Made by a program: the position numbers and the translations under genes. A stretch of DNA of 64,000 bases from assembly GCA_038845975.1 (NCBI GenBank), contig JAWBQF010000008.1, positions 29,673 through 93,672 of the forward strand, given 5' to 3'. Of this stretch, positions 32,364-45,011 are shown in pieces; the stretch's first letter is position 1; each line of letters starts with the position of its first letter. Below the pieces are notes generated by a model. That model had not been told where the DNA came from. It saw only the letters and a list, made by a program, of their open reading frames with translations, and searched no databases. Source of the stretch: Candidatus Methanomethylicia archaeon. GTDB taxonomy: Archaea > Thermoproteota > Methanomethylicia > CALHIW01.

Positions 32364-33170
32364 TTAACATTGTTTTATTGAGATTTGAAATGTACAGAAG
32401 CTATTACCTAATGCAATACATGAAGTTTCAGTTATCCTTATATTCTTCTTGAGAAAGCTAAATAGAAATCCTTCTAGAAAACCTTTAAAGTACCGGCTTG
32501 CAGAACCTTGAACTTTTCCTTCTAAAACTTCACATTCCCATAATCTATCAGTCTGTACTACAATATTATCTTCATAAAGTCTTACATTAACTATTCGTGC
32601 CCATCCGAAACCTATTAGGAAAGCATTTAAAAGTTCTAGGGCTTCCTCTAACTTAATGTTTTTATCACCAATATATACTTTATGGAAAGCCTTACCAGTA
32701 TTGTACCCAGTATAGTATAGTAGAGATTCTGTAAATCCTTCTCCAAAATGTTCCTTAAATAAGCTAAGTAGAACCTTAATAGTATTTTGATCGATCATTA
32801 TACTTCTTACATCTCCTTGATATATTGGGAAGAGATTTCTGCTATAAATAATACTACCTTCAATAGGCTTCACAATCCTAACTTCAAACACCACTTCAAG
32901 CTCCTCAATTTTAGACTTTATATCCTCTGGTGATAATAGAGAATTTGAGAAGTCTCCAACAATAAATCCGTGAACCCGCTCCTTCTCCGAGATTGTTGAT
33001 GGAAGTGTTACTGAAAGTATGTTGATATTATACTTAGAAAAAACATTTGAAATCGAAGCTAAAACACCTGGTTTAGAGGGTATTACTATATCAAATGCAA
33101 CAATATTTTTCCCACCTGTAAACATGATGTTTCCAAGTGTTAATATGGAAAATACTTCCTCCCGCATCAT
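32364..33170 (-). CDS. ACT + V4R domain protein (putative small-molecule sensor)
   Basis: N-terminal KPGVLASIS...INILS (ACT); C-terminal GFGWA, WECE, ETSCIALGNSFCTF (V4R). Confidence 0.85.
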   Translation of the reverse strand: MMREEVFSILTLGNIMFTGGKNIVAFDIVIPSKPGVLASISNVFSKYNINILSVTLPSTISEKERVHGFIVGDFSNSLLSPEDIKSKIEELEVVFEVRIVKPIEGSIIYSRNLFPIYQGDVRSIMIDQNTIKVLLSLFKEHFGEGFTESLLYYTGYNTGKAFHKVYIGDKNIKLEEALELLNAFLIGFGWARIVNVRLYEDNIVVQTDRLWECEVLEGKVQGSASRYFKGFLEGFLFSFLKKNIRITETSCIALGNSFCTFQISIKQC

Positions 33171-34931: not shown

Positions 34932-35588
34932 GTGTATAATAGGTATTTGATATCCTTGCTTGAGCTATACATAATGTTTGGTTTAGCTATTGCTTCCTTA
35001 GTAGTTTATGTCATTGGCTCCATTAAGAATAGGAGAATTATTGTGAACTACTCGAAAACTGTTAAAGAAGAGGCATCTCTCTACTGTACTTTTACTGGAT
35101 TTAGAATTTTTAGTAGAGGCTTTGAGGCATTATGTCAACTTAGAGATAACAGAGTCTTCAGTAGAGTAAATATTAGATTTTTACCAGCAAGGAGGGAGAA
35201 TTTTATGTATTATTTACTGAAATTCCTAGTTAAAGATTATGATAAAATAATTTTTTGGGGTCTTCTCAATGATGAGGCCCCAATTACATTAAACATAGTG
35301 AATAATAATAATGTGAAAATGATAGAAAAACTTAAGAATAGTAGCTTAAGGAAGATAGAATTGGGCAATACTGGATTCACAGCATTTACTGACAGTATAG
35401 AGAAAGCTGAAAAAATTACTGGAAAAATATATAGCTACTTATTTCAGGTTAAGGACAACACTACCCTAATAACTATAAATAGAATGGATGACTGGATTAG
35501 AGTAGTAGGTGTTATGAGGGAAAACTCAGTTAAAGACACATTGAATTTACTAGTTAGGCTTGGAGAAGTAATGAAGACTCTAAAATAA
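34932..35588 (+). CDS. Hypothetical N-terminally membrane-anchored protein
   Basis: 218-aa ORF with one TM helix followed by G..KNRR and an RREN motif. Confidence 0.7.
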   Translation: MYNRYLISLLELYIMFGLAIASLVVYVIGSIKNRRIIVNYSKTVKEEASLYCTFTGFRIFSRGFEALCQLRDNRVFSRVNIRFLPARRENFMYYLLKFLVKDYDKIIFWGLLNDEAPITLNIVNNNNVKMIEKLKNSSLRKIELGNTGFTAFTDSIEKAEKITGKIYSYLFQVKDNTTLITINRMDDWIRVVGVMRENSVKDTLNLLVRLGEVMKTLK

Positions 35589-36629: not shown

Positions 36630-37640
36630 TTAAATTTTTAGTCCTCCAGCTAATGCCCTAGCTACTTTTTCTATCATTTCAATTCCTATAACCTCACTCT
36701 CGTAGAGAGGTATATAGGCTCTTACAAGTCCAGGAAACTTTTTATGTATGGTTTCTAGATATCCTTCTTGTTCTTTAAGCTTGTTTAACACATATGATGA
36801 GGGGTTTTCGATAGCACATATCTCTTTAGGAATAAGGCCGTTTACAATTACTCCGCCTATAGGAATATTAAATGCTTGAACCCATGTAATAAATCTCTCA
36901 ATAACAGCTATAGGTAATGCTAGTGGTAATGTAACGAAGAAGAACGCTGTTTTTTCAGCATCTGTTAATACTTTCTTAGCCTCCTCAGTACGTCTCCTAG
37001 TTTCAAGAGCACTCTGTAGTATTGGATCCTTTTTTATTTCTTCAGCTATTTTCTCCTTCCTAAAAGCTAGTTTAAGTCTTGTAGATAAAGCCTCCTCTCT
37101 GCTTTTAATTAGTCTTGCAAGCCATAAATCATAAACCTTAGACATTCCGAGAAGCCTATACGTATGTGCTACCGGGGCAGTGTCAAATACGTAAGCATCA
37201 AATTCCCCTTTAAGAATGAGGTCGATCATATCGTCAAACATAGCCGCCTCCTCAAAAGCAGGATTTGTTGTAGCTATATCTATGAAGGGTTCAGGATTAA
37301 CAGGTATATCTGCATGTTTTACAAATGTTAATATTTTATCTCTAACTTCAACCTTATATTTCTCAATTGTTTTGGATATGTCAAGTTCAATAGCGTATAA
37401 ATTATTAGCTATTTTCTGAATTCCCTTACCCCATAAATCCATTTTAAAGGTGCTTGATAAACTATGAACTGGATTTGTTGAGGAAATTACTGTTTTCCTA
37501 CCTAAATGCTCAGCCAAATAGTATGCTGCTCCTGCAGCAACTACTGTTTTTCCAACTCCTCCCTTACCGCCGAAGAAGAGATATTTAAGTCCAGGTTTAG
37601 AATTAATAAATTCAGTAAAGTTCAAGCTATACACCTCCAA
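36630..37640 (-). CDS. ArsA/Get3 (TRC40)-family ATPase, paralog 2 (switch I Asp->Asn)
   Basis: GGKGGVGKT, STNPVHSLS, FDTAPVAH. The true start is probably TTG near 37625 after GGAGGTG. Confidence 0.9.
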   Translation of the reverse strand: MEVYSLNFTEFINSKPGLKYLFFGGKGGVGKTVVAAGAAYYLAEHLGRKTVISSTNPVHSLSSTFKMDLWGKGIQKIANNLYAIELDISKTIEKYKVEVRDKILTFVKHADIPVNPEPFIDIATTNPAFEEAAMFDDMIDLILKGEFDAYVFDTAPVAHTYRLLGMSKVYDLWLARLIKSREEALSTRLKLAFRKEKIAEEIKKDPILQSALETRRRTEEAKKVLTDAEKTAFFFVTLPLALPIAVIERFITWVQAFNIPIGGVIVNGLIPKEICAIENPSSYVLNKLKEQEGYLETIHKKFPGLVRAYIPLYESEVIGIEMIEKVARALAGGLKI

Positions 37641-38604
37641 AAAGATATTGAGCTATCTTAGCTATCATTTCTAATCCTTTAGGCTCCCTATCAAGCATGG
37701 GTACAGTTCCAAGAACTAAACTTCCAAATTTCTGTTTTATTGTCTCCATGTGTTTCTGCTGCATTAATATTCTGTTCTTAAGGTATTCTGGAACACAAGG
37801 ATCGTTAAGCAATTCAATAGGATATACTTGATTGACAATAATACCGCTTAATGGTATTTTAAACTCCTGAAACATTTTTAAAGCCTTCTCAGTATCTAGA
37901 ATAGCCATAGCTTCAGGTATTAGGACATAGAAGAAAGCTGTACGTTTCCTATCCCTCATAACCTCTCCAACAAAGTCAAGTCTGGACCTAATAAAGTCAA
38001 GCTCCTTTAATATAGCGTCTTCCTGAGCTAGACCACCCTTACCGCCAAGAACAGCAGCTATTTCCCCATACTCACTAGCTTTCTTTCTAGCTTCAACAAC
38101 CTTATCAATCCAAGCATCGAGAAGTTGACTCATACCTAGAAACCTTATAGCATGCCCATGAGGCATCATATCAAATATGTAGTAGTCATATCTACCACTA
38201 GTCATAAGCTCCACCATAGCATCAAAAGTAGCTGACTCAGCCATAGCCGGCTCAGCAGATGCTGACTTAATGTATTCATCGATTTCTGAAGGTACCTCCC
38301 CATACATTTCAATGATTTTCTTCCTTATTTCTTCCTGATACTCTGCAATACGTTTATCAGCATCTATTTCAAGAGCGTAAAGATTTCTGGCTATTTCTAC
38401 TTCCCCCTTACCGAAAATGTTTCTCTCAAAAATATCAGTAAGACTTGCTTGGGGATCAGTTGAGAAAACAATGACTTTCTTTCCTCTACTTGCTAGCCAA
38501 TATGATGTAGCTGATGAAAGAGTTGTTTTACCAAGACCACCCTTACCGCCGAAAATAATGTATTTAATATCGGGATTTGCTTCAAAATACTCCTTAATAT
38601 TCAT
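37627..38604 (-). CDS. ArsA/Get3 (TRC40)-family ATPase, paralog 1
   Basis: GGKGGLGKTT, STDPQASL, ALEID, FDMMPHGH, IIVNQV. Confidence 0.9.
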   Translation of the reverse strand: MNIKEYFEANPDIKYIIFGGKGGLGKTTLSSATSYWLASRGKKVIVFSTDPQASLTDIFERNIFGKGEVEIARNLYALEIDADKRIAEYQEEIRKKIIEMYGEVPSEIDEYIKSASAEPAMAESATFDAMVELMTSGRYDYYIFDMMPHGHAIRFLGMSQLLDAWIDKVVEARKKASEYGEIAAVLGGKGGLAQEDAILKELDFIRSRLDFVGEVMRDRKRTAFFYVLIPEAMAILDTEKALKMFQEFKIPLSGIIVNQVYPIELLNDPCVPEYLKNRILMQQKHMETIKQKFGSLVLGTVPMLDREPKGLEMIAKIAQYLFGGV

Positions 38605-38912: not shown

Positions 38913-39770
38913 AAAACTTAATACACAAAATATTTAAATTTTACTGATGAATAGTTGTGACCTGTTAACTTTAGGTTACTGTATCATTTATTACCCTCTT
39001 AGAGAGATTATTTCATTCACTTTCAAAATTTTCTATTATGGTTTTGAGTATTAGTGATGTGCAATCTTAGGATACGGTATACTATTAGTATATATTGTTG
39101 AGTTATTCTTAACTCTTCTATCTATTATCTTGAGAATTTAACACTACTTGATGGAACATAATCCTCCTACTAAAGTATGAATATAACTAATAACTTCAAC
39201 TAACATGATAAGTAAGCCATATATTCATGAATTATGTAAACCATTCATAATGAATTAAAGAAAATATCAAATAACTGGCTTAATGTAACTTCATAATTAT
39301 GCTTCCTAAAGCTCTTTGCTACTACTCTACCTAGATGCCTAATATTATACTATTGTTTCTATCCTTCAATCAATATTAACATATAGTTCATCAACTCAAC
39401 AACACCATTAAACTCAACATAATTAAACCTACATCTAATCCTTAACATAAGCCTTCTCAAAACCCTAAAGATAATTATAGAGCATTTATCAAAAACCAGT
39501 TAACATAAATGAATTATGTAAACCTAGAACAGTGAAATATTGTACCAGTTTTATCATTAAAAAAGCTTTGTGGTTTAATATTCATTTCTCGTAATCTATA
39601 TCATTAAATACTATGGTTATAGGAATGCTTATTAAGCTTTTTCGTACTTTATATAAACTTGAATCTGCAAAATTTTGGAATTAAGCCACAAAGCATTAAA
39701 AAATATTCTAAAGTTGACAAGAAACAGCTTCAGAGCAAATAAATTTAAAAGCTTACGGATAACACATATT

Positions 39771-40019
39771 ATGCGTAAGTTTAGAAATATTATTAGGGAT
39801 ATTTTTATTGGTGCTGCAACTTATGATACTATTCACAGTCTTCAAAGAAAACGTTTTCAAAGTGAATGCCTCTTAATGCTCTCTATCATGGGCGATAGAT
39901 TAGGATTAAATACTTCATGCTACTATAAATTGATATTTATCCCATATTGGATGAAGAGATTTAAACAATTTGAAGAGGAGCTACTACGTGAAAAGGATTT
40001 CTTCGAAAAAATATCTTAA
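39771..40019 (+). CDS. Paralog of the 38613..38912 small protein
   Basis: ECLLML..GDRLG....YYKL.FIPYW...LLREKD aligns by eye with 38613..38912. ATG 39771 is preferred over 39675. Confidence 0.65.
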   Translation: MRKFRNIIRDIFIGAATYDTIHSLQRKRFQSECLLMLSIMGDRLGLNTSCYYKLIFIPYWMKRFKQFEEELLREKDFFEKIS

Positions 40020-40559: not shown

Positions 40560-42221
40560 TTATGCTGCTTTTTTCAATCTTGAATATGCCTTCACAGAGT
40601 CATATATGAATATTATTCCAAGGATTAGTAGAAATACTCCTACAATAGTTGCTAATAGGTTCCCAACAATAGCCAATCCTGTAGCTTTCATAGCTGTTAT
40701 GTACGTTGTATATGACATTATTGCTAGAGCGCTTAGGCATATTGCCAGCATGAATATTGCAGGTATTGATGTAAAGTATGCTGGCTTCTTTATTCTTACA
40801 AGGTATAGTGTTGCGATTACAAGGTTCATGCCTGCTAATAGTTGGTTAGCTCCTCCGAAAAGCGTCCAGACATATAGTAGTACTCCTCCAAATCTTGAGC
40901 TTCCAAGCAAATAAGCTAATATACATGGAATTATTGATGCAAAATAAATGTTCTTAAATGCCGGTATTCTAGCTCCAAAAAGCTCTGCTAGTCCTAGCCT
41001 CATAATTCTAAGATTTAGATGGAGAACTGTAAGTACAAGTACAGCTATTACTGCTGCTACAAATGGAAGTATACCTTGAACTGAGAATCCAAGATAACCT
41101 AGTGACTTAGCCCACCCAAGAGCAACCATATCTGGAGCTGTTAGCCCCTTAACCTCTGCTGGTAGTAAAGGAGCAACAGCTCCAATAGTTGTTAGTGAAA
41201 GTATTCCTTCCATAAGCATCGCTCCCCCACCAACAAATAATGCATCAGCCTCATTATCTAGCTGCTTTGAAGATATTGAAGAGCCTACAAGTGAATGCCA
41301 TCCAGATATAGCTCCACAAGCAACAGTTACAAATAGAAGGGGTACTAAGGGATCCATTCCTGTGGGAATAAATGATACAAAGGCTGGCTGATTAAAATCT
41401 GGATGACCTACAAAAACTCCAAGCATTACTGCGATTAATGTACCGTATACGAGGTAGAAGCACATATAGTTTACAGGCTGTACGAAAAGCCATATTGGGG
41501 TTACAGATCCAATAAAGCAGAAAAGTAAAACCCAGAAGTACCAGAAGTCCTCGAATAGATATGGATCCTTAGCCATCCATTCAGGAAGAGTTACAGGCAT
41601 ATGTAATCCAATATAGGATACTATAATCATCAATATTATAGCTGCTAACGTCGTATACACTACATTAATTTTAAGCTTAAACGTAGATACTCCTGCGATT
41701 ACAGCTATAATTGTTACTAGTAGGAATATTATTGGTGCTGTTGAATATTTTCCAAGATAGCTTTTAGCAACAATCATACCGTATGATGATGTGGAAAGCA
41801 ATAGATAAAACGTTATGAAGGAGAGTAGAAGGAGTCTAGCTCTAGGACCTATGAGCTGGTATGATAATGGTCCAAATGATGCGCCTTCATTCTTAACTGA
41901 AACCATAACTCCAGAGTAGTCATGAATCCATCCTATAAAGAGGTTCCCAAGCAACACCCATATTAATGCTGGTAACCAACCCCACTTAAAAGCTATTATA
42001 GGCCCAGTTATAGGACCAGCAGCTGCTATGCTTTTCCATTGAAAACCAAGTAGAACGTATTTGCTTGTTGGGAAGAATTCAACGCCATCCATATATACGT
42101 GGGCTGGTGTTGTTTTTTTAGGATTTGACTCCATTATTTTACGATCAAACCATTTACCATAGACAAAATAGGCGATAGCATACACTATAAGTCCAAGAAT
42201 AACCACTATTACAGACATCAT
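40560..42221 (-). CDS. cstA: Carbon starvation protein A (CstA) family permease
   Basis: TPAH..MDGVEFFPT, SIAAAGPITGP, GWIHDY, VACGAISGWHSLV, GAMLMEG, LFGGANQLLA. Confidence 0.92.
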   Translation of the reverse strand: MMSVIVVILGLIVYAIAYFVYGKWFDRKIMESNPKKTTPAHVYMDGVEFFPTSKYVLLGFQWKSIAAAGPITGPIIAFKWGWLPALIWVLLGNLFIGWIHDYSGVMVSVKNEGASFGPLSYQLIGPRARLLLLSFITFYLLLSTSSYGMIVAKSYLGKYSTAPIIFLLVTIIAVIAGVSTFKLKINVVYTTLAAIILMIIVSYIGLHMPVTLPEWMAKDPYLFEDFWYFWVLLFCFIGSVTPIWLFVQPVNYMCFYLVYGTLIAVMLGVFVGHPDFNQPAFVSFIPTGMDPLVPLLFVTVACGAISGWHSLVGSSISSKQLDNEADALFVGGGAMLMEGILSLTTIGAVAPLLPAEVKGLTAPDMVALGWAKSLGYLGFSVQGILPFVAAVIAVLVLTVLHLNLRIMRLGLAELFGARIPAFKNIYFASIIPCILAYLLGSSRFGGVLLYVWTLFGGANQLLAGMNLVIATLYLVRIKKPAYFTSIPAIFMLAICLSALAIMSYTTYITAMKATGLAIVGNLLATIVGVFLLILGIIFIYDSVKAYSRLKKAA

Positions 42222-43673: not shown

Positions 43674-45011
43674 CTAATAGCCTTGCTTTTCCTGTATATA
43701 TTCTAGTAGGTTTATTGATTTATATTTCTGTTTTCTAAATTTCTCACTCTTTCCCTCAATAGGTATTGTAGCATCTATACCTGCTTTTGCTGTTATTGGT
43801 TTTTCCCCTGGTATATGCTTTGCTGATGGATCTAGTGATGATCCTCTTTGGTTAGTATAGATATATATATCTTTATCTGCTTGAACTCTTGTAGCTATTG
43901 CCCATTCAACCTCATTGGGATCGTAGATATCTACATCTTCATCTACTACTATACAGTGTTTTAGTGATTTATGTGTTTTAAATGCTGTTTCTATAGCTTT
44001 TTTAGGATCATCATTATGTTTTTTCTCTATCTGTATTACTGCATGTAGCCATGAGCATCCCCCAGGAGTTATCAAAACATTTATGCATCTGCATACTTTA
44101 TTTACTTCGCTGTAGATTACTGACTCTATAGGCATACCCATCAATATTTTATGTTCATTTCTGCCTGGAAGTAATGCTTGATATATTGGATTTCTCCTAT
44201 GAGTTATCCTTTTTACCTCTATTATTGGCTGTTCACGTTCTATATCGTAGGTTTCAGTTATATCTAGAAATGGGCCTTCAGGAGCTTTTTCTCTAGTTAT
44301 TTTACCCTCTAATACTATTTCTGTTTCTGCCGGAACTTCAATATCAATTGTTCTACATTTTACTAGTGGTGTTGGGTATAATGCGTTGGCCATGCTTAAC
44401 TCATCAACTCCATGTGGTAATGGTGTAGCTGCAGATATTAGTACCTGTATTGGAGCCCCAATACATATAGCTACATAAGCTTCTCCACCTGACCTCTTCA
44501 ATATGGTATCAGTTCCTCTTCCCTCAACTATTCTAGCAACAAATCTTCTTTCATCAAGTAGTAGTAATCTATGGAATGAAGAGTTCCTAATACCGGTCTC
44601 CGGATCCTTCAATATACATACAGCACTAGTAACATATCTTCCACGATCTCTAGGCATATGCTTCAATACTGGGAGTATTCCTAAATTAACATTTACCTCC
44701 TCTACTTCCTGGCATGGACCACTATCTAAAACTTCAGGCTCCTTTAAATTTCTCATTGCCCAGTTAAGCCTACTTATTATTTCCTCTTTTCTAATTCTTA
44801 AAGCTTTAGCTACAAGATCTCTTGATGATACTATGTTTCCAACTACCGGTATTTTTGACTCTTTTATCTTCTTGAAGTAGACAGGGTTTCCATCCAGTGC
44901 TGCAAGTATGCTTGCAACCTCATACTCTACAGATGCTTCCTTAACTATTTTTACTAGGCTACCTTCAGCTTCAAGCTTCGAAATAAAAGTTCTTAAATCC
45001 ATACTCCACAA
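43674..45011 (-). CDS. UbiD-family (prFMN-dependent) decarboxylase, possibly anhydromevalonate phosphate decarboxylase
   Basis: RNSSFHR, EIVLEG, PEGPF, GGCSWLHAV, VVDEDVD...VEWAIATR, GSSLDPS, GIDAT. Confidence 0.88.
   Translation of the reverse strand: MWSMDLRTFISKLEAEGSLVKIVKEASVEYEVASILAALDGNPVYFKKIKESKIPVVGNIVSSRDLVAKALRIRKEEIISRLNWAMRNLKEPEVLDSGPCQEVEEVNVNLGILPVLKHMPRDRGRYVTSAVCILKDPETGIRNSSFHRLLLLDERRFVARIVEGRGTDTILKRSGGEAYVAICIGAPIQVLISAATPLPHGVDELSMANALYPTPLVKCRTIDIEVPAETEIVLEGKITREKAPEGPFLDITETYDIEREQPIIEVKRITHRRNPIYQALLPGRNEHKILMGMPIESVIYSEVNKVCRCINVLITPGGCSWLHAVIQIEKKHNDDPKKAIETAFKTHKSLKHCIVVDEDVDIYDPNEVEWAIATRVQADKDIYIYTNQRGSSLDPSAKHIPGEKPITAKAGIDATIPIEGKSEKFRKQKYKSINLLEYIQEKQGY

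Follow-up and report, generated by a model that had tools for sequence, protein, structure and literature searches.

How might two adjacent ATPases of the Get3/ArsA family work together when only one of them has the catalytic aspartate of switch I? This question is raised by a stretch of 64,000 nucleotides from a Candidatus Methanomethylicia archaeon (assembly GCA_038845975.1, contig JAWBQF010000008.1, positions 29,673 to 93,672; the whole stretch is hereafter called the window), in which two neighbouring genes of the reverse strand, here named P1 and P2, encode such proteins (Table 1). The answer that we consider probable, while well short of certain, is that P1 and P2 would form an obligate heterodimer in which the P1 site hydrolyses ATP and the P2 site holds it, and that this dimer would be the ATPase of a six-gene module built around the permease CstA.

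Two unequal members of the Get3/ArsA family

The members of the Get3/ArsA class are SIMIBI P-loop ATPases in which two subunits sandwich two ATP molecules, the first lysine of the GKGGxGK motif extending into the site of the partner. D57N is the usual ATP-binding, hydrolysis-deficient mutant of Get3, and the natural Asn of P2 corresponds to this laboratory mutation. The motifs on which the initial annotation of this DNA was based are indeed present: STNPVHSL in P2, STDP and DMMPHGH in P1, and the deviant Walker A GKGGxGKT in both. Two of its descriptions are accurate only in part, since P1 has the Asp and the letters STDP but within a full motif STDPQASL that lacks the consensus His, and P2 has the letters DTAP but within DTAPVAH and not within an intact DTAPTGH. 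The switch positions can be taken as homologous to those of Get3 because, in HMMER alignments, the STDPAHSL and DTAPTGH motifs of the solved archaeal Get3 homologue 3UG6 line up with the switch motifs of P1 and P2. Asn51 of P2 sits at the position of D57 of yeast Get3, the catalytic aspartate (PMC10248533). The P1 sequence contains the full catalytic set (GKGGLGKT, STD50PQASL, D145MMPHGH and N258), and P2 retains both Walker A lysines, the Walker B D148 and the adenine-loop N262; the two proteins are 37% identical (122/332). As listed, P2 begins at a TTG that gives 336 aa. A second TTG, at 37625, is the more likely start, to judge from its context, and would give 331 aa: it lies 1 nt past the P1 stop and has GGAGGTG ahead of it, and the 331-aa form is that of the public gene calls.

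Profile searches clearly place both proteins in the TRC40/GET3/ArsA family: PF02374 matched P1 with 237.2 bits (3.2e-70) and P2 with 205.3 bits (1.7e-60; cut-off 24.3), and TIGR00345 matched them with 235.5 and 208.2 bits, respectively (cut-off 135). The deviant Walker A, GKGGxGK[ST] with its signature lysine, was invariant in 27 P1 and 28 P2 orthologues, and the Walker B Asp is retained in both proteins, while other positions of DTAPTGH vary. The catalytic Asp of switch I is present in P1 (D50) and absent from P2 (N51), so that P2 is, by sequence, a family member without this residue. The closest solved relatives of the pair are the archaeal Get3 homologues 3UG6 and 3ZQ6, and not ArsA (E 2e-67 to 1e-50); with these and with Get3/TRC40 the pair shares the family, the fold, the deviant Walker A, switches I and II and the adenine-loop Asn. 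Get3 proper, the targeting factor that takes up tail-anchored membrane proteins in a hydrophobic groove and delivers them, also has a CxxC zinc clamp at its dimer interface, whereas nothing in P1 or P2 aligned with the CDFC of 3UG6 and no Cys was invariant across the 27 P1 and 28 P2 orthologues. The ArsA equivalog TIGR04291, whose cut-off is 650 bits, gave P1 no more than 111.8 bits and P2 no more than 91.1, P1 and P2 being single-domain proteins of 325-336 aa and ArsA a fused double-domain one, and no match to an arsenic-gene family was found among the open reading frames (ORFs) read between 32.3 and 47.3 kb of the window. Scores also fell below the cut-offs for BagA (NF053622, 51.9 and 35 bits; cut-off 400) and BagB (NF053621, 39.3 and 27.2 bits; cut-off 521).

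The same genome encodes two further full-length Get3/ArsA members, both with Asp in switch I and neither near CstA. The first (L001, contig C1) is a protein of 396 aa with a C-terminal ArsA_HSP20 domain and the motifs SSDPAHSL and DTVPSGE. The second (L003, contig C7), of 321 aa, has STDPTPSL, DTAPAGG and a CRCS motif, and is possibly the canonical Get3 homologue of this genome.

Conservation of the switch motifs

We sampled 301 genomes of the phylum, 48 of which gave a match to P2 at E <= 1e-30, and retrieved 30 loci, among them that of the window itself and a near-duplicate. P2 read xNPVHSL in 30/30 of these loci, with P2 proteins 44-75% identical to that of the window, and P1 read FSTDPQASL in 29/29. 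The Asn was also found in 120/120 best homologues of P2, 69-100% identical to it (118 by pattern and 2 read directly), whose source names comprise Bathyarchaeia, Nitrososphaeria, Nezhaarchaeales, Verstraetearchaeota and unclassified Thermoproteota. Not a single reversal of Asn to Asp was seen in 150 sequences. Among the best 150 representatives from 1.84 billion proteins, NPVHSL was limited to the rows most similar to P2, and the remoter relatives had STDP; the P2-type cluster P0123, with STNPVHSL, includes proteins named from Methylomirabilota bacteria. The Asn is fixed across orthologous pairs, and the possibility, considered in the initial annotation, that it might be unique to this assembly is ruled out. 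On these counts, the split of Asn and Asp between P2 and P1 is far beyond chance. Castillo and Saier remarked in passing that, in the 'SXD' motif, N is the sole residue that may replace the D (PMC2963123).

Beyond switch I, the alignment of 28 P2 orthologues argues that P2 is under strong constraint and is not decaying, because 76 of its columns are invariant, including G19-T27, D148 and N262. We regard it as quite unlikely that P2 still usefully hydrolyses ATP, with the Asn or a neighbouring residue placing the water and the substitution merely tuning the rate: the Asn is invariant down to the identities given above, reversal to Asp was never seen, and the matching mutation of Get3 is the standard hydrolysis-deficient form. 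What speaks for such activity is that P2 keeps all the other residues of the nucleotide site invariant, plus the NPVHSL His, which is missing from P1, and that Get3d proteins with a divergent switch I retain ATPase activity (PMC10248533).

In switch II, P1 follows the pattern DM[MP]P[HF]GH, with DMPPFGH in 23 loci and DMMPHGH in 6, so that, of the MMPH whose conservation had been in question, M146 and P148 are invariant and the string as a whole is found in those 6 loci alone. As D145, P148, G150 and H151, and M146 as well, were invariant in 27 orthologues, the P1 alignment points to a specialised rather than a decayed motif. P2 reads DTAPVAH in 6/30 loci, those of the window's group, and D[TM]AAVAN, without the P or the H, in 24/30.

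These readings bear directly on the proposal of complementary degeneration, by which the defect would lie in switch II for P1 and in switch I for P2, and only the mixed dimer would be catalytically whole. It is true that, in the window's lineage, P1 (DMMPHGH, and STDPQASL without the His) and P2 (STNPVHSL) depart from the consensus at different motifs, and that their nearest unduplicated relative, P0130, is canonical (STDPSHSL and DTAPIGHT). However, both switches of a given subunit serve a single nucleotide site and, on this general knowledge of the fold, should be unable to complement across subunits: P2 could not rescue a defect in switch II of P1, and such a defect would abolish the one site in which the Asp is left. 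In addition, the positions of P1 switch II listed above, the new Met146 among them, are invariant, and degeneration is one-sided, because P2 has lost both the P and the H of switch II in 24/30 loci. P2 departs from the consensus in switch I and in switch II, P1 at no essential position of either; the 'complementary degeneration' of the initial annotation finds no support in this comparison, and we consider it very improbable.

Among other P2-like sequences, P0139 combines STNPAHSL with a P-loop that is broken (GKSSVGNT), and P0124 reads SLSTLHSL at switch I. These two sequences suggest that the nucleotide chemistry of the P2-type subunit has been wholly lost in some lineages.

Gene coupling and the proposed dimer

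Two matches per genome were found in 31/301 sampled genomes, always as neighbours on the same strand. With start codons picked by a heuristic, the gap between P1 and P2 was -4 nt in 17/27 loci and 17 nt at most, and the gap between P1 and S, a small-protein gene upstream of it, was likewise -4 nt in 17/27 loci. A tree of 109 family members, computed with FastTree only, recovered a P1 clade (28 rows) and a P2 clade (35 rows), each with Shimodaira-Hasegawa (SH) support of 100, and united P1, P2 and the single canonical P0130 in one clade (SH 99); the P1 and P2 subtrees share their branching order. The view that P1 and P2 are a fixed, co-inherited and tightly coupled pair is supported by these sequence comparisons, which would also fit an origin in which a canonical homodimeric ATPase was duplicated once, long ago, and the two copies then came to share the work.

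The tree also contained fused ArsA-like proteins of ~640 aa (P0134, P0135, P0146, P0147, P0182 and P0232), the N-half of which is P2-like, with D[TM]AAGAHA as switch II (and, in P0147, also SVNPAHSL), and the C-half P1-like, with GKGGCGKT, STDPQxSL and DTAPTGHT. That these are joined P2-P1 proteins was considered and rejected, both halves being placed in a separate clade. Since both halves fall outside the P1 and P2 clades, the fused proteins appear to be a lopsided dimer of independent origin, produced by a separate duplication.

From the motifs, their conservation, the pairing, the coupling and the gene context, all of them observed, we infer the dimer, its dead site and its target. P1 and P2 would be obligate partners in a dimer of the Get3/ArsA class, and both of its ATP sites would be composite. 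The P1-based site would be complete, with its P-loop, Asp50, the Walker B Asp145 and, in trans, Lys21 of P2, and would hydrolyse ATP. The P2-based site, with both lysines, Asp148 and Asn262, would bind ATP as well, and, Asn51 taking the place of the water-activating Asp, would hold it with hydrolysis that is slow or nil. The pair would be a one-stroke switch, in which the closed state is maintained by one ATP and the timing of the cycle is set by the second. We believe that a single hydrolytic site in an asymmetric heterodimer is the most economical reading, because the two genes form a fixed, coupled pair and one of them carries the Asp-to-Asn change. The asymmetric heterodimer put forward in the initial annotation is thus retained as a probable reading, on the strength of the fixed Asn asymmetry and of the coupled pair, and is separated from its 'complementary' part, which is not supported. 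In a complex prediction with P1, P2, two ATP and S as the scored partner, S scored 0.48-0.54; controls in which S was replaced gave 0.00 and 0.00, and a control in which P2 was replaced gave 0.53, a set of scores that counts neither for nor against the complex.

The coupling also bears on the alternative of two separate homodimers, an active ATPase (P1)2 and an ATP-locked (P2)2 serving as a holdase or scaffold. The solved single-domain relatives 3UG6, 3ZQ6 and yeast Get3 form homodimers or tetramers in which both sites are equal, and the two small-protein paralogues described below could serve one homodimer each. Against this, the P1 and P2 genes are always side by side, mostly with a 4-nt overlap; a (P2)2 with two dead sites would not be reopened by hydrolysis; and the single-ATPase module found in other genomes (see below) is canonical in its motifs, which fits one dimer that was subfunctionalised after duplication. 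We hold two separate homodimers to be decidedly improbable.

Some known ATPases offer partial parallels to the P1-P2 heterodimer. The A1 and A2 nucleotide sites of ArsA are unequal in activity. E. coli ArsA resembles the pair in its two non-identical homologous halves and two nucleotide sites (PMC2963123), but differs from it in being one fused A1-A2 chain, with metalloid-binding cysteines, ArsB as partner and Asp in both halves. Mycobacterial BagA and BagB (Rv3679-Rv3680; PDB 6BS3) are known as heterodimeric Get3-like ATPases, are encoded by adjacent genes and reportedly interact; they are distant from P1 and P2 (PDB E about 7e-7). The nearest functional analogy, and it is an analogy only, is the BcsR2Q2 complex of bacterial cellulose secretion: in BcsQ, the Asp that would activate the water is naturally absent (Cys39), and the protein forms stable ATP-sandwich dimers uncoupled from hydrolysis (PMC8892547). 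Like the pair, BcsQ is of the SIMIBI class, has a small helical protein as partner (BcsR) and is tied to a membrane machine (PMC8892547), whereas it belongs to the MinD/ParA-like branch of SIMIBI proteins and is a homodimer.

The CstA module and its possible function

The pair and the genes around it make up a six-gene module, which comprises a CstA permease, P1 and P2, two small proteins of the DUF7990 (CstX-like) kind and a membrane protein whose fold is CCDC47/TtfA-like. CstA adjoins the pair in 29/31 pair-bearing genomes. In 25/31 it lies directly upstream of S on the same strand, in the order CstA, S, P1, P2 that is seen in the window, and in 4/31 it is convergent and follows right after P2.

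The small protein S (96-99 aa) was found upstream of P1 in 29/30 loci, the remaining locus being one without upstream DNA. Its conservation is high and includes the motif GDMLG.P.LPPYYSLRLLPY...RERD.TD, and its model is a helical hairpin of two long helices, of modest confidence (predicted local distance difference test, pLDDT, 70). None of 28 members (0/28) gave a credible match to any Pfam family in a Pfam set searched without the PF25952 model, and all of them (28/28) matched NCBIfam NF041419 (cory-CC-star), with a best E of 6.1e-10 and scores below the 80-bit cut-off. The label DUF7990 (PF25952) comes from the ESM Atlas look-alike search alone (score 0.98). Kinship of S with YbdD/YjiX, the CstA partners of E. 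coli, was considered and not established, S having no Pfam family. We call S CstX-like after the CstX of Castillo and Saier, on its size and position only.

The S profile matches exactly two genes in this genome, S and S2, the latter being a diverged DUF7990-like paralogue. S2 accompanies the pair in the window and in L016, L017, L019 and L023-L042. In other genomes, it lies directly after P2, convergent to P2, or ahead of S; in many Thermoproteia-type loci it stands directly after P2, with the C-terminus ...DVH. A profile search recovered a second S copy in 5/5 genomes missed by the pattern, at <5 kb from the module in 4 of them. There are, in this way, two small proteins for two ATPase subunits. 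In a single-ATPase module found in two genomes (L043 in G067 and L044 in G181), another CstA is accompanied by one S-like protein of 77 aa and one ATPase of 300 aa, with start and stop overlapping; this ATPase is canonical (STDPAHSV and DTAPIGHT), and the module occurs in the same genus as some of the pair-bearing genomes. To judge from the 2+2 gene counts and the gene order, the two hairpin proteins S and S2 would probably each partner one subunit, and P1-P2 would most likely work on the CstA complex via these small proteins, in its assembly, chaperoning or gating.

The sixth gene encodes a protein that matched no Pfam family and whose own family was found in 14/301 genomes; in 11 of the other 13 genomes, the gene and CstA are no more than ~1.5 kb apart. 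CCDC47, a component of the eukaryotic multipass translocon, is an accessory factor in the biogenesis of membrane proteins, and TtfA is one for a transporter. The model of the archaeal protein (pLDDT 90.4) shows a membrane helix at the N-terminus, followed by an alpha/beta domain and a helix at the C-terminus, and its best match was chain 4 of the multipass translocon 7TM3 (Z 18.7, root-mean-square deviation 2.6 A, 202/204 residues), with further matches to 9I78 chain 4 (Z 16.6), mycobacterial TtfA 6T84 (Z 13.7, 152 residues) and 6W6L chain 7 (Z 12.6). From the composition of 6W6L, the description of CCDC47 (PMC7505659) and the residue ranges, we infer that the matched chains are CCDC47. The protein is probably the 'CstY' of the 2010 paper.

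That paper (Castillo and Saier 2010; PMC2963123) described single-domain ArsA homologues, from several of its clusters, in operons with cstA, a cstX of ~90 aa and sometimes a cstY of ~210 aa, and proposed, from genome comparison, that the ATPase energises CstA through CstX. Its cluster 15 consists of adjacent pairs of ArsA homologues in Pyrobaculum arsenaticum and Symbiobacterium thermophilum (PMC2963123), and the window shows the same composition: two adjacent single-domain ArsA homologues of ~330 aa, CstA and the CstX-like S of ~90 aa, without arsenic genes. The paper differs from the present analysis in containing neither a heterodimer or dead-site reading nor an experiment, and in having one CstX where this module has two paralogues; its CstX and CstY were matched to S and to the CstY-like protein by size, position and description, and not by sequence (PMC2963123). 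The gene pair and its CstA context were thus already known in 2010, and three features are new with respect to the papers found: the partner with the CCDC47 fold, the presence of a second small paralogue, and the dead-site asymmetry in its fixed form. The literature searched, mostly that outside subscription journals, yielded no experiments on ArsA pairs linked to CstA, on DUF7990 or on cory-CC-star.

One reading of the target is that the pair energises an ATP-driven CstA pump as ArsA does ArsB, with CstX as the coupling and no assembly or chaperone role; it concerns the target only, and is compatible with the asymmetric dimer. Several facts argue against such a pump. CstA-family transporters of E. 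coli function without an ATPase of this kind; the module includes a protein with the CCDC47/TtfA fold, a fold of biogenesis and transporter accessory factors; and the best solved relatives of the pair are archaeal Get3 homologues and not ArsA (91-112 bits for TIGR04291 against 650). Its support is the CstA/CstX neighbourhood (PMC2963123), found here in 29/31 pair-bearing genomes, and we regard the pump as doubtful, albeit with a real share of plausibility. As to what the switch does, the Get3-like ATPases and the CCDC47/TtfA-fold protein lean towards an assembly or accessory function, and the ArsA-ArsB precedent towards energising.

Some considerations weigh against our preferred reading of a P1-P2 heterodimer that serves CstA. 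The binding of P1 to P2 is deduced from sequence and gene coupling, and the known single-domain Get3 proteins are homodimers. Asn lowers hydrolysis in mutants, yet slow turnover by the natural P2 could be functional. The link of P1 and P2 to CstA is drawn from gene neighbourhood, and CstA lies 38 kb off in 1/31 pair-bearing genomes and on a different contig in 1/31. Finally, the P1/P2 tree is a quick FastTree run, and mirrored P1 and P2 trees would be expected from shared vertical descent alone as well.

Two other genes of the window were noted near the module (Table 1). One encodes a UbiD-family decarboxylase with the UbiD_N, UbiD and UbiD_C domains. The other encodes a protein of 268 aa, with weak matches, below the Pfam cut-offs, to an ACT-like domain at the N-terminus and to V4R at the C-terminus, and may, on these matches, be a small-molecule-sensing regulator.

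Table 1. Positions of the P1/P2 genes, their nucleotide-site motifs and the neighbouring genes in the window
Feature	Position	Strand	Basis or remark
P1, Get3/ArsA-family ATPase, 325 aa	37627..38604	-	ORF list, PF02374, TIGR00345, motifs
P1 Walker A GKGGLGKT	38524..38547	-	
P1 switch I STDPQASL	38440..38463	-	
P1 Asp50 codon GAT, catalytic Asp retained	38455..38457	-	alignment to 3UG6
P1 switch II DMMPHGH	38152..38172	-	
P2, Get3/ArsA-family ATPase, 336 aa from TTG as listed	36630..37640	-	ORF list, PF02374, TIGR00345
P2 Walker A GKGGVGKT	37545..37568	-	
P2 switch I STNPVHSL	37458..37481	-	
P2 Asn51 codon AAT, at catalytic-Asp position of switch I	37473..37475	-	alignment to 3UG6
P2 switch II DTAPVAH	37164..37184	-	
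S, small helical-hairpin protein, CstX-like, 96-99 aa	38613..38912	-	ORF list; directly upstream of P1
S2, diverged DUF7990-like paralogue, 114-aa ORF	39675..40019	+	ORF list; 26% identity with S
CstA-family permease, 553 aa, upstream of S	40560..42221	-	PF02554 8.5e-114
CstY-like protein, 218-aa ORF, probable start 34974	34932..35588	+	ORF list, profile search, model
UbiD-family decarboxylase	43674..45011	-	~1.5 kb upstream of cstA
268-aa protein, ACT-like and V4R	32364..33170	-	weak, below Pfam cut-offs

A wider interpretation would make of the six genes a dedicated machine for the membrane-protein biogenesis or quality control of CstA, composed of a Get3-like heterodimer that fires at one site, two hairpin adaptors and the CCDC47/TtfA-fold protein. 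We think this unlikely. If it were true, relatives of two biogenesis factors of the eukaryotic endoplasmic reticulum would already cooperate in one archaeal/bacterial operon, and the natural 'D57N' subunit would show a targeting ATPase running on a single hydrolysis event.

ATPases of the Get3/ArsA class are usually viewed as symmetric dimers, and the Asp-to-Asn form is familiar as a trap made in the laboratory. In P2, nature has fixed this trap in one subunit of a pair that is present in several archaeal classes and in bacteria. The module that contains this pair joins a Get3-like motor to CstA, a common permease for nutrients, and to a protein with the CCDC47/TtfA fold, and is widespread, the pair being carried by 31/301 sampled genomes of the phylum and related proteins being named from Methylomirabilota bacteria. 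If P1 and P2 do form the asymmetric dimer proposed here, they would be a ready-made system in which to probe the purpose of the second ATP site.

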